DNA of 64,000 nt from a virus (IMGVR_UViG_3300036770_005357), one strand, 5' to 3'. Counted from the first letter of the stretch, positions 14,625 through 42,902 are shown. Program-made: numbers and translations. The notes: generated from the sequence alone by a model not told the origin.

Positions 14625-15008
14625 TTATTTACCAAATATTCCAATTTTTCCCATTTGTGATTGAAGAACTGGATTTATTTTCTTCAAAACATCTTTGCCC
14701 GTTGGAATGACTCCACCCCACGACCCTGAATATTTCACTTTTACACGATCATTTCCATCCGGTTCAATTTTTATCATAAAATCTGGGGATTTTTTGGATG
14801 TTATTATGATAGTATTTATGGCAGTATCAATACGCACAAGTAAGTCTCTGTCTATGAGAAGAATGTTACCTTTAAGATCATAAAACAATCTGTCAATTAT
14901 AGATTCAATGTTTGATCCACCAGAAGTACTACGAGTGTCTGATGTATCATCTTCATTTAGGTTTAGAAGACATTCTTTGATTAACATTTTTAGTTGGGTT
15001 CTAGTCAT
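14625..15008 (-). CDS. Late-type protein with MTRTQLKMLIKE tag
   Basis: AT-rich ORF, TATTTATA motif upstream (15031-15038). Confidence 0.65.
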   Translation of the reverse strand: MTRTQLKMLIKECLLNLNEDDTSDTRSTSGGSNIESIIDRLFYDLKGNILLIDRDLLVRIDTAINTIIITSKKSPDFMIKIEPDGNDRVKVKYSGSWGGVIPTGKDVLKKINPVLQSQMGKIGIFGK

Positions 15009-15180
15009 AATTTATATATTGGTTATTTGTTATAAATATACGAAAAAAAAAAATAATAAAAAAATTTACTCGTACAGTTTACTAGCTTTTTTGGGGAAGT
15101 CAAGCGGTAAAAACAAAAAAGCTAACAGAAAATTAATCCGTTAGCTTTGTAATTAATTATAATGATTTAAGTTTAATCCA

Positions 15181-15465
15181 CTACCCGAACAGATCGAAAT
15201 CATCAAAATTATCAACATACCAACTAAAATGACGGGCAAAAGAACGAAAAATGTCAGCCGCTTTGGTTTTTGCTTTTTGAGCTAGATCGGAAAATTGTTG
15301 TTTTTTGACAGGATCGTTTGTTTTCTTACTCAATTCACGATATTCATCTTCCTTTTTTTTCAAAGTAGAATAAGCTAATTTTGCTTTGTTAATCGTGGAT
15401 TTGTCATGATCACTATTTTCAATAATTACTTCTTTGATAAGTTCTTTAAGTTCTTTTTTAGTCAT
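15181..15465 (-). CDS. Late-type protein with MTKKELKELIKE tag
   Basis: TATTTATA motif at 15470-15477. Confidence 0.7.
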   Translation of the reverse strand: MTKKELKELIKEVIIENSDHDKSTINKAKLAYSTLKKKEDEYRELSKKTNDPVKKQQFSDLAQKAKTKAADIFRSFARHFSWYVDNFDDFDLFG

Positions 15466-15520
15466 ATACTATAAATATATGAGAAAAAAATAATTACAGA
15501 TTATAAAACTTTTATAGATA

Positions 15521-15742
15521 TTATTTTGCGTAATGTATTTTATTAGTGCAATTACCTTTATGTATTAATGTCCAGCCACCTATTTTACCGTTATAAGTCT
15601 GAATATACTCACAACCATCTATAACTTTATTTATATTGGTAGGTATCATCATAAATATAATAACAGAAATAATAATAATGCCCAAGTAAATCAAAGTTTC
15701 ATGCGTTATAAATGCTTTGTTTTTCATAGTTGCTTCTTTCAT
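15521..15742 (-). CDS. Small membrane protein, paralog of 40963..41157
   Basis: TM helix then IDGCEYI...LIHKGNCTNKIH, matching IDNCQYI...LTHKGNCTNNIH. Confidence 0.65.
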   Translation of the reverse strand: MKEATMKNKAFITHETLIYLGIIIISVIIFMMIPTNINKVIDGCEYIQTYNGKIGGWTLIHKGNCTNKIHYAK

Positions 15743-15800
15743 CACGAGAACAGTCTACAGTTTTCTAGGGAGAAGTCAAGCCCCCTTTTTTGGGGGAAAT

Positions 15801-39420: not shown

Positions 39421-39810
39421 ATGAGTGACCGTTTTAAATTTCGTATTTATTCTTTTCTAGAGAAGTCTTTCTACTTTTTCTCTATTGGAGATGGTGAAGA
39501 TGGTTATCCTCAAGGACTTGCTGGTGGTGTTAGTGAAATACAACAATATACAGGCTTAAAAGATAAAAATGGTAAAGACATTTATGAAGGTGATATTGTT
39601 AAAACGCTAGACAAAGACGCTATATCAGCAATATTCGTTAATTATACAGTGTATACCCGTGGTGTTATTACATGGTTACGCGAGGGATTTTGTATTTCTC
39701 AACCATATATTGGTAGCAACGAATTGCACAATTATACTCACTGTGATTGTTGTGACTGTGATTTGGAGATCATTGGCAATATATTTGAGAACAAAGAATT
39801 ATTAAGTTAA
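39421..39810 (+). CDS. YopX family protein
   Basis: QQYTGLKDKNGKDIYEGDI ... GNIFENKELL. Confidence 0.85.
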   Translation: MSDRFKFRIYSFLEKSFYFFSIGDGEDGYPQGLAGGVSEIQQYTGLKDKNGKDIYEGDIVKTLDKDAISAIFVNYTVYTRGVITWLREGFCISQPYIGSNELHNYTHCDCCDCDLEIIGNIFENKELLS

Positions 39811-40023
39811 TATGAATAAAAGTGTTACTGAATTGTGTGCCGATTATCCCAATTTGGCAGAATATATTGTTCAATTGGAGAAACGAGAAAATAAACTTCT
39901 TAGAATTTTATATATGATTCGTAGTGGGAATGCTCCCCTATATGACTCTGATGATGCTATTAATTTTCAAAACGAAGTGGATGATATACTTGACCCGTGG
40001 ATTAGAAAAAATATTAATAAAGT

Positions 40024-40452
40024 ATGAATAACCGATTTAAATTTAGAGTGTGGGATAAAATAAATAATTCATTCTTTATCAATGAAGAAACTAAGGATGT
40101 ATATTTTGATATATGGCAATGGACAGATAAAATGTCAACTTGCTTAAAATATCCAATAGAAGACTGTATTTTTCAACAATATACAGGCTTAAAAGATAAA
40201 AATGGTAAAGAAATTTACGAAGGTGATATTATTCGCGGAATGTTTGATTTTGGACCTGCTGGTTTCACGGAAGAAATTCTACCTATAAATTGGCATAGTG
40301 AAAAAGGTTATCAATGGGAATATTGGCAGTTAATAACAATTGAAGTTGTGGGTAATATTTTTCAATATCCATGTAAACCCGACCATAATGGTGAATGTAT
40401 TATTTGCGATTGTTGGTTGATAGATTGTCCGATTTTGAATAAAAGTAAATAA
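40024..40452 (+). CDS. YopX family protein
   Basis: QQYTGLKDKNGKEIYEGDI ... GNIF. Confidence 0.85.
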   Translation: MNNRFKFRVWDKINNSFFINEETKDVYFDIWQWTDKMSTCLKYPIEDCIFQQYTGLKDKNGKEIYEGDIIRGMFDFGPAGFTEEILPINWHSEKGYQWEYWQLITIEVVGNIFQYPCKPDHNGECIICDCWLIDCPILNKSK

Positions 40453-42320
40453 TTATGAAATATAAAGTTACATATTATGATTATGATACTGATTCAACGA
40501 TAACTAAAAATTGTATTGATATTGATTATAATACTATTGATAAAACTTTTAGTTTTTATCCAGTAGACGACCCTCCTCGTATTTATAGATCTGTTGTTAT
40601 TGACCATCCAGTAGTTAGTATTTATCAAAATGATCGTGGGCTTAGAATTACTGTAGATGGTTATCAATGTATAAAATCAGGTGGCTATTGGAAAACAAAA
40701 ACAATTATTGAAAGTGCGGATAAATAACTATGAGTGCATTTAAGTATAAAAAAGTAAAAGATTATAAAGTTGAAGTACGAACCAAAACCAATGTTAGTAT
40801 TGCAAGTATAGAACGAGATGTTGATGGTTATTTTTATTTTTGGATGGATGAAAGTATTAATGGAGCTTGGACTTCAAATACTTTAAGAGAAATTGCAAAT
40901 AAACTTGACGAACTCAACAAAGAGTGGGATACTACTATTAAAAGAGAATTCTCCGGGGAAAAATGAATAAACAATCAAACGCTATATTTTATTTAATTCT
41001 AACATTTATAATTGGATTTCTAACCACTTACATTATTACAAATGATGGAAAAGTAGTTACAATAGATAATTGCCAATATATCAAAACCTTTGGTGGAAGA
41101 GGTTTCTCATTAACCCATAAAGGTAATTGTACAAACAATATTCATCAAAACAAATGAATAGAAAAGACTTTATAAAATCATTATTTGGTGTACCCGCTTT
41201 AATTTTAGCAAACAATACATCAAATATTTCTAGTAACAATACTGTTGCAAAAGATGTAGTATTTTATAATAAATTAAGTCTTGATTTAAAAGGGAATATT
41301 GGATTGGGTCCCAATCCGTCTTCTTATCCACTACATGTATATTATCCTAATGAAAACTAATATGACTACAAAGTATTTAAGTGTATATCCTGAATGGCAT
41401 TGTAGAAGAAATGGAGGAGGATTATTTTTAGGAATAAGGATAATGTTTCCCCGCACTATTTGGCGCAATGATGCTTTAGGAATTGATGACACTTATAAAG
41501 CAATTACTTTGCAGTTAGGATTGATATTGTTTACTTTGCGCTTTGATTTAAAATATAATTACAAAAACATTACCGCTCAATAATATGACTAAATTGTATG
41601 TTAAATTAACTGCCAAACCTGATACTTGGTTTAAGGCCGGAACAGAAGTGTTTGATTATGATGAATATGGCAAACGAATTACGCTTGAGTCATACCACGA
41701 ATGGCTTAAATCTAAATCCATCTTAGTAAGAGGTATTCATATCTATGAAAATGGCGTTGAAGCTGAAGACGGTGAATTGTGCCGTATTGATGAATTTGAT
41801 ATTGAACTAACAGATAGTGAACGAGATATTCCGTGGCCTAAGCCATTAGATCCTCCAACTACTACTGCTGATGCAGAAGCCAGACAAAGAAGGTTTGAAG
41901 AGAATATCAGGCATATTCAAGGATAAACTAAATGACTGATAACCGCACATATTATTATGACATAAATGGTAAGATGGAGCCAGACTATGAAAGTATGGCG
42001 GCTTATTTATTGGATGAAGGTGTATTGTTTGTAACATCAGCAATTGATAGATGTAATCAAAAAGAGTGTTTGGGATTGTATATTTTAATCAATGATTACT
42101 TTGTTCCCGCTTCAGATGCTGAGTCTGTTACTTATGATGAATTGCCAAAACTATTTGAGATGTATAAAGAAAAACAATGGAATGGTGTGAGTAAATTTGT
42201 AGCAGATAAACGAGGTATTCCAGATCTTTCTTGGCGAGATAAAAATAGCGCATTTCAGAAAAAACTTGGGAATGATAAATAATTTAGTCATAGTGGTTAT
42301 AGTCTATATTTATAGAATAT

Positions 42321-42902
42321 ATGATTAAGTTGACGGATATATTTAAAGAAATTATTGATTATGAATTTGTTTTGTGTAATAATAATCAATCATTGAATGA
42401 ATCTCCTGTAAGAGTTAATAGTATACCCACTGAATTATTTGCTAGTAATGGTTCAAATTATGAATATACCAAATACATCATAGAGAATGGAAAGTTGGTG
42501 GGTAATTATAAAGATTATAAAATATATCAGTTAGTTATTAACAATGAAATTATTGATATATTTATATATAACGAATTGGCTTACATATATTTCAAATATA
42601 AGTTAAATAATAATATTATACAAGAAATAACAATATGGCAAAATCCATTAACATTAGGATTGTTTAGAGATGTAATGTTTAATTACTATTTAGATAAGTT
42701 TGACGGCGTAATATCAGATGCAGTTCATTCAGTCAGTGGAGAAAATTATTGGAAAAAACTACTAAATAAAGCAAAAGAATCCGGTTTCAAAATATCTGTA
42801 TTAAGAGACAATTCAGTCAAAATTCCAATTGCCAATATCAATGATTTAGATAAATATAGACACTCAACATTATACAAATTTGTTATAGAAAAATCCAAAT
42901 AA
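42321..42902 (+). CDS. MIKL-tagged protein, paralog of 21321
   Basis: IWQNPLTLGLFR..MF.YY...DGVISDAVH..SG..YWKK. Confidence 0.65.
   Translation: MIKLTDIFKEIIDYEFVLCNNNQSLNESPVRVNSIPTELFASNGSNYEYTKYIIENGKLVGNYKDYKIYQLVINNEIIDIFIYNELAYIYFKYKLNNNIIQEITIWQNPLTLGLFRDVMFNYYLDKFDGVISDAVHSVSGENYWKKLLNKAKESGFKISVLRDNSVKIPIANINDLDKYRHSTLYKFVIEKSK

Follow-up and report, generated by a model that had tools for sequence, protein, structure and literature searches.

Thirteen genes in a 64,000-nucleotide (nt) stretch of DNA from the virus IMGVR_UViG_3300036770_005357 (hereafter the window) begin with one of two short peptides, and these tagged genes span positions 14,625-42,902. On the sequence evidence set out below, both N-terminal peptides are probably capsid-targeting propeptides of the kind used by phage T4. 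The mechanism that we propose is the known T4 one; what stands out is how many cargoes there are, that they include enzymes, and how widely it is spread. We infer from sequence that the proteins are synthesised late, dock to the core, are cleaved and packaged, and are injected. Production of the tagged accessory proteins would be late and driven by the promoter type that also serves the virion genes, and the amphipathic tag would dock each cargo onto the scaffolding core of the assembling prohead. A gp21-type serine prohead protease would then cut after the closing [L/I/V]-x-Glu, at Glu-10 in the shorter tag (class 1) and at Glu-16, perhaps Glu-12, in the longer one (class 2). Finally, the freed cargo would remain in the head and would probably be delivered with the DNA into the next host; such cargo would include an ADP-ribosyltransferase, a kinase, a zincin-like protein and small proteins.

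The source is an uncultured relative of the far-T4 phages, a group to which Flavobacterium phage immuto belongs. As a 173-kb Joint Genome Institute contig that carries window proteins overlaps just part of the window, the genome exceeds 200 kb. A complete relative (G001; 295,831 bp, 31.7% G+C) matches the window in patches, at 65-96% nucleotide identity, and carries about two dozen tagged genes. Among cultured phages, neither the region (megablast) nor its ADP-ribosyltransferase (tblastn) found a match, and a 44-mer taken from the window had no exact copy in IMG/VR.

Two portable tags under protein-level selection

All 13 N-termini claimed in the initial annotation were recovered at their positions by listing of open reading frames (ORFs) and by direct reading, and all of the tags begin at first ATGs. 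Seven genes carry the 10-residue class 1 tag, with the consensus MIKLKD[IL]LxE, and six the 16-residue helix of class 2, MTKxELKxLIKE[VTC][LIM]xE. The class 1 pattern M-I-[KRS]-[LF]-x-[DKT]-[IL]-[LIF]-x-E, with L/F at position 4, L/I at 7 and L/I/F at 8, is found at 24855, 27217, 27604, 28188 and 42321; the outliers are a degenerate form at 21321 and a 14-residue variant (MKLIEILKKHILKE) at 30401. Class 2 tags lie at 25965, 26274, 26644 and 27023 on the plus strand and at 15465 and 15008 on the minus strand. A closing [L/I/V]-x-Glu is common to both classes, to which class 2 adds an I-K-E at residues 10-12. Allowing [L/I/V/F/M]-x-E, this ending stands at the expected end of the tag in 12 of the 13, the gene at 21321 having instead L-S-E at residues 4-6.

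The tag is confined to the starts of genuine genes. Among 2480 ATG-led peptides in the window, the class 1 regular expression matches five, all at the first ATGs of ORFs of 102-552 amino acids (aa), and its 15 matches in G001 are all on ORFs of 113-297 aa. The nine stretches in G001 that match the first eight residues and lack Glu-10 are all in junk ORFs of 4-43 codons. Of the 21 real ORFs matching those eight residues, 20 have Glu-10. A position-specific scoring matrix (PSSM) of the tag scores the N-termini at 18-27 bits and no internal position of the tagged proteins above 0.7 bits. The cargoes behind the tags fall into 11 families in the window with no BLASTP similarity between them beyond the tag. 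The description of the tagged proteins as unrelated therefore holds at the level of families, but not for two pairs that prove to be paralogs once the tags are removed (21321/42321 and 26274/26644, the latter with 70% identity).

Furthermore, the tags are modular and widespread. Degenerate DNA patterns for both were run on IMG/VR and returned more than 160 stretches in all (41 of class 2, at least 120 of class 1). All 130 matches examined (41 class 2 and 89 class 1) coincide with ORF starts and are followed by diverse sequences: 142 tagged proteins from the window and IMG/VR form 82 BLASTP cargo clusters, one of which contains both tag classes. A pattern combining the promoter with ATGATTAA gave 73 single matches and was judged uninformative. 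Exchange of tags can also be seen among homologs of single cargoes. Orthologs of the ADP-ribosyltransferase (56-67% identity) retain the tag, with Glu-10 invariant, and one has a class-2-like tag in place of class 1. Homologs of the window kinase on two other contigs (L146 and L149) bear the canonical class 1 tag, and that of the T4-like pelagiphage HTVC008M begins MIPFILKE/G. In the cultured Flavobacterium phage vB_FspM_immuto (NC_055915.1), a 141-aa protein at 24569 begins MIKLIDLLTE, and class-2-like starts occur as well, for example MKKSQLRQIIKEAL. We found no paper that contains the tag strings or that describes such tags in uncultured or giant T4-like phages.

Conservation of the tags is at the level of the protein. 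The codons vary synonymously (Ile ATT/ATA 49/44%, Lys-3 AAA/AAG 73/27%, Glu-10 GAA/GAG 78/22%), and since these proportions follow those of the genes as a whole although the amino acids do not change, selection acts on the peptide.

The tags are also linked to an upstream motif. Ahead of most tagged genes of the window, TATATTTATA ends 4-6 nt before the ATG, with no Shine-Dalgarno sequence; the motif precedes 8 of the 10 genes identified by regular expression as tagged but only 4 of the 111 others (Fisher p = 2e-8). In G001, the ATATTTATA motif lies 12-16 nt upstream of the ATGs of portal, baseplate(-wedge), tail-fibre and head-tail adaptor genes, and because it precedes such structural genes we read TATATTTATA as probably the motif from which late genes of the clade are transcribed. 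In T4, the late promoter reads TATAAATA. The structural genes behind the motif in G001 have ordinary, unrelated N-termini; neither the promoter nor near-leaderless translation, therefore, yields the tag as a side effect. Many tagged genes in G001 lie in operons downstream of one such promoter. Given the gap of 4-6 nt and the lack of a Shine-Dalgarno sequence, the late mRNAs of this clade may be leaderless or nearly so.

Likeness to capsid targeting in phage T4 and other phages

In the T4 record AF158101, the internal proteins IPII and IPIII start with MKTYQEFIAE and IPI with MKTFKEF..., and the propeptide of gp24 is MAKINELLRE. In IPIII, residues 4 and 7 serve targeting and residues 8 and 10 serve processing (PMC9026906). 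The class 1 tag fits the T4 targeting and gp24 pattern position for position, with hydrophobic residues at 4, 7 and 8 and Glu at 10. As in the T4 proteins cleaved by gp21 (IPI, IPII, IPIII, Alt and gp24), an N-terminal peptide of 10-19 residues ends in L/I-x-Glu, and a single tag is borne by unrelated, fast-changing cargo. In both cases this cargo includes an ADP-ribosyltransferase, T4 Alt being a packaged enzyme of this kind that loses a short N-terminal propeptide (PMC9026906; PMC5694885). A further likeness is the gp21-type protease with a module of portal, protease, scaffold and capsid genes, found here in the relatives. However, the two systems also differ. The window consensus, MIKLKD[IL]LxE, is not the T4 sequence MKTYQEFIAE, and the window has a second class, the 16-residue helix. 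T4 has about four tagged genes, whereas the 64-kb window has 13 and G001 about two dozen. Enzymes make up several of the window cargoes, and most of the tagged window genes are preceded, nearly at the ATG, by a late-promoter motif of their own. Unlike those of T4, the window tags are known from sequence alone.

The T4-type machinery itself is encoded by the relatives. Peptidase_S77, the gp21 family, scores above its curated cut-off in five of six large tag-bearing records (G001, G002, G006, G008 and G009), and this protease family has thousands of close relatives in metagenomes. In G001, the blocks LGELDHP and GISSRGMGS align with the His- and Ser-containing blocks LGELNHP and GVSSRGLGS of T4 gp21, and the L-N-E/A of the capsid protein aligns with the T4 gp23 cleavage site L-T-E/A. 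That capsid protein is closest to those of immuto (53%), Microcystis phage Mel-JY01 (50%) and Rhodothermus phage RM378 (38%), and has about 26% identity with those of T4-like phages. The head module of G001 has the T4 order. The portal is followed by two uncharacterised proteins and the head maturation protease; next come a protein of 555 aa and a tagged one of 146 aa, then a scaffold-like protein, and after it the major capsid protein and a tagged protein of 203 aa. Small tagged proteins are thus encoded between the protease and capsid genes, and in G008 a tagged gene lies about 1 kb from that of the protease.

Class-2-like stretches were also seen in head-module proteins that adjoin the protease in G001 (143529-144230, minus strand), immuto and Mel-JY01 (L143 16415-16636 and L267 8709-9173). 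They read LRELIKQVVDE, MKKSQIVKAVQEVLEE and YQKIVQEVVREVIAE and share the form L-[KR]-x-L-I-K-[EQ]-V-x-x-E; the class 2 tag may derive from, or copy, a helix of a prohead core protein.

The ADP-ribosyltransferase of the window gives a view of how tag and cargo are joined. In its AlphaFold2 model, residues 1-11 have a predicted local distance difference test score (pLDDT) below 50, and from residue 12 the mean is 86; in the model, the tag extends freely beyond the cargo fold. The best match among solved structures is a cyanophage pre-ejectosome chain (9k3a_B, E 1.9e-6), followed by PARP-type ADP-ribosyltransferases.

Other phages offer partial parallels. In phiKZ-like giant phages (phiKZ, 201phi2-1 and SPN3US), head and ejection proteins lose N-terminal propeptides, supposed to direct them into the prohead, when the prohead protease cleaves after Glu (PMC5694885). 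This resembles the course that we propose for the window's phage, but the propeptides of those phages are mostly longer than 100 residues, follow the motif A/S-x-E and are not a short tag shared by many proteins. The ART-PolyVal domain is among those for which injection together with the phage DNA has been predicted (Iyer et al. 2017, PMC5512222). The polyvalent proteins described there, from phages and conjugative elements, share with the window ART-PolyVal, zincin-like HExxH and P-loop kinase domains and a predicted delivery with the DNA; their domains are fused in one giant polypeptide, often with MuF or portal, whereas in the window they are separate tagged genes. Finally, the Dar system of phage P1 (DarA/Hdf), compared by description only, likewise loads accessory, non-structural (anti-restriction) proteins into the head, but does so via specific helper proteins and with no short shared cleavable tag.

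Weighing the explanations

Several observations weigh against capsid targeting. Among the 13 tags there are three exceptions: that at 21321 lacks Glu-10, that at 15008 lacks Glu-16 and that at 27023 has Met at P3. Moreover, [L/I]-x-E is a common tripeptide that is present inside the cargoes too, and the motif alone predicts little. Nine paralogs in G001 have a longer conserved N-terminus (..FVPRRxEDR), and the tag there may belong to the domain. In one tag-bearing record (G007, 207 kb), which has a single tag, neither an S77 protease nor a Gp23-type capsid protein was detected, and the protease, scaffold and capsid genes of the window's own phage were not seen, the window being part of a genome. 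In addition, the assignment of the late promoter rests on the motif.

The strongest competitor to capsid targeting, although we think it unlikely, is that the tag serves as a docking helix or address for some other partner, such as a chaperone, a membrane, the tail or baseplate, or a host target, with no need for cleavage. Both tags are short amphipathic helices able to bind many things, and G007 bears the tag with no T4-type head genes detected. Docking of this sort, however, would leave unexplained the fixed closing [L/I/V]-x-Glu (and the near constancy of Glu-10 in real ORFs), the agreement, position by position, with the T4 capsid targeting sequence and the presence of tagged genes within head modules. 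A considerably smaller probability attaches to an element acting at the nucleotide level, in which the first 30-48 nt would be a late-promoter or initiation part on near-leaderless mRNAs, or a patch of homology for cassette recombination. This would accommodate the promoter-like motif 4-6 nt from ATGs that have no Shine-Dalgarno sequence, and also the tandem genes of 25965-27205, whose upstream DNA is near-identical among them and suggests duplication or recombination at the boundaries. Against it, the tag codons track bulk usage, structural genes of G001 with the motif start with unrelated N-termini, and many tagged genes lie in operons behind AGGA-type sites with no promoter motif of their own.

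We consider still less probable a leader for a modifying enzyme, resembling the precursors of ribosomally synthesised and post-translationally modified peptides and read by a radical S-adenosylmethionine (SAM) or other maturase. Radical-SAM proteins are encoded in G001, G002 and G006; in G001, however, their genes lie at 5-36 kb and the main tag clusters at 207-291 kb, more than 170 kb apart, the tag-bearing records G008 and G009 have no radical-SAM match, and no CxxxCxxC enzyme was found in the window. The radical-SAM leader was rejected on these findings in G001, G008, G009 and the window. We give the least credence of all to chance, or to a functionless remnant of common descent. There are indeed two paralog pairs among the 13 genes and a nine-member paralog array in G001, but the absence of similarity beyond the tag among 11 window families, the 82 clusters across relatives and the retention of an invariant Glu-10 by orthologs at 56-67% identity all stand against it, and a reverse-pattern control gave no matches in five records against 24 in the forward direction. 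This last explanation is contradicted by the data.

The proposal of T4-like targeting made in the initial annotation is supported in its central part by indirect evidence: the likeness at mapped positions, the gp21-type proteases of the relatives, the shared late-promoter motif, tags that are modular, swap and probably lie outside the cargo fold, and cargo domains of the injected-effector type. What the sequence does not support is the added idea of polyprotein processing, with 24855 and 28188 taken as internal domain junctions. Both are gene starts behind a stop codon and a promoter-like motif; they belong to separate genes with their own stops, and the PSSM finds no internal copy of the tag. 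We therefore rejected such processing.

Whether an abundant clade of aquatic far-T4 phages, giant ones included, loads dozens of unrelated proteins per genome into its capsids via two interchangeable, sequence-predictable tags is, on the sequences at hand, an evenly balanced question. More than 80 cargo families are already represented in the present sample, among them ADP-ribosyltransferases, kinases and zincins. Were the clade to do so, sequence alone could reveal which proteins uncultured phages inject. If the tags are T4-like, any gene starting with one would predict a virion-carried protein delivered at infection, and a sequence-only catalogue could be drawn up of early-acting effectors (host-modifying and likely anti-defence) for very abundant uncultured aquatic phages. 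The tags would also be a portable handle for putting foreign proteins into these capsids. As the cultured phage immuto carries such tags, the prediction is open to direct experiment.

Individual tagged genes and other features of the window

The tagged genes are listed in the table. The start at 27023 was chosen downstream of the stop of the preceding gene. Some of the cargoes have recognisable relatives. The ADP-ribosyltransferase matches Pfam ART-PolyVal over residues 15-179 (E 2.8e-13), and the kinase matches AAA_33 and Zeta_toxin from residue 24. The protein at 24855 has a marginal match to PGDYG (residues 263-354, E 1.1e-5), slightly below the curated cut-off. Matches to PHROG were found for the proteins at 28188 (16532/10499, functionally uncharacterised) and 42321 (1349), and the cargo of the gene at 15181..15465 is related to that of a tagged G001 gene at 207253.

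Table. Genes of the window with a class 1 or class 2 N-terminal tag
Gene or product	Coordinates	Strand	Tag (positions)	Upstream element (positions)
Tagged gene, 127 aa	14625..15008	-	Class 2 variant, MTRTQLKMLIKECLLNLNE (14952-15008)	TATATTTATA (15031-15040)
Tagged gene, 94 aa	15181..15465	-	Class 2, MTKKELKELIKEVIIE (15418-15465)	TATATTTATA (15470-15479)
Gene, 188 aa	21321..21887	+	Degenerate class 1, MIKLSELLQS (21321-21350)	
Tagged gene, 357 aa	24855..25928	+	Class 1, MIKFKDILCE (24855-24884)	TATATTTATA (24841-24850)
Tagged gene, 90 aa	25965..26237	+	Class 2, MTKSELKALIRETLSE (25965-26012)	TATATTTATT (25935-25944)
Tagged gene, 117 aa	26274..26627	+	Class 2, MTKSELKKLIKEVLSE (26274-26321)	TATATTTATT (26244-26253)
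Tagged gene, 120 aa	26644..27006	+	Class 2 (26644-26691)	AGGA-type ribosome site, no promoter motif
Tagged gene, 60 aa	27023..27205	+	Class 2, MTKQELKKLIKETMSE (27023-27070)	Same sequence as upstream of 26644
Tagged gene, 102 aa	27217..27525	+	Class 1, MIRFKKLINE (27217-27246)	
ADP-ribosyltransferase, 187 aa	27604..28167	+	Class 1, MIKLKDLLNE (27604-27633)	TATATTTATA (27590-27599)
Gene, 552 aa, HEMQH at residues 89-93	28188..29846	+	Class 1, MISLHTILSE (28188-28217)	TATATTTATA (28173-28182)
P-loop kinase, 267 aa	30401..31204	+	14-residue variant, MKLIEILKKHILKE (30401-30442)	TATATTTATA (30387-30396)
Tagged gene, 193 aa	42321..42902	+	Class 1, MIKLTDIFKE (42321-42350)	TATATTTATA (42305-42314)

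Two further sets of paralogs have recurrent starts of their own. Genes at 20649-21080, 24374-24838 and 32248-32664 (plus strand) encode proteins of 21-25% identity with the N-terminal motif ..KQYP[IV].N..W; they were rejected as carriers of a tag, being a separate paralog family. Between 36824 and 43370 (plus strand), at least five small paralogs with ..F[KMV]FR[IV][WY]D-like starts, two of them Pfam YopX proteins, are interleaved with other small genes.

Elsewhere in the window, an ammonium transporter (Pfam Ammonium_transp, E 8.5e-114) adjoins a P-II nitrogen regulator (E 5e-34) at 49636-51428 on the minus strand, probably as an auxiliary metabolic gene pair. Short stretches within 8273-9767 are 81-95% identical to G001 at 231-235 kb, far above the surrounding DNA, and include a tRNA-Asp (9201-9276); a second tRNA (Met) lies at 15801-15878. 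Islands of 43-44% G+C, in a genome of about 32%, occupy 16000-20000 and 2000-4000, and only short overlapping ORFs are present at 16-18.7 kb. Endonucleases are encoded at 18902-19783 (endonuclease-VII-like) and at 4222-5052 and 12769-13647 (GIY-YIG homing type); this may be mobile or intron-associated DNA. A 1030-aa protein encoded at 33156-36248 (plus strand) has a signal-peptide-like start (MKVLNLLKLFIALLFLIVNINAQV) and no match in Pfam or PHROG. Finally, the last ORF of the window (62553-63965, minus strand) represents the C-terminal portion of a roughly 2768-aa open frame (L082 1688-9994) that matches virion structural and tail-spike PHROGs; the structural module thus starts at the window's end.

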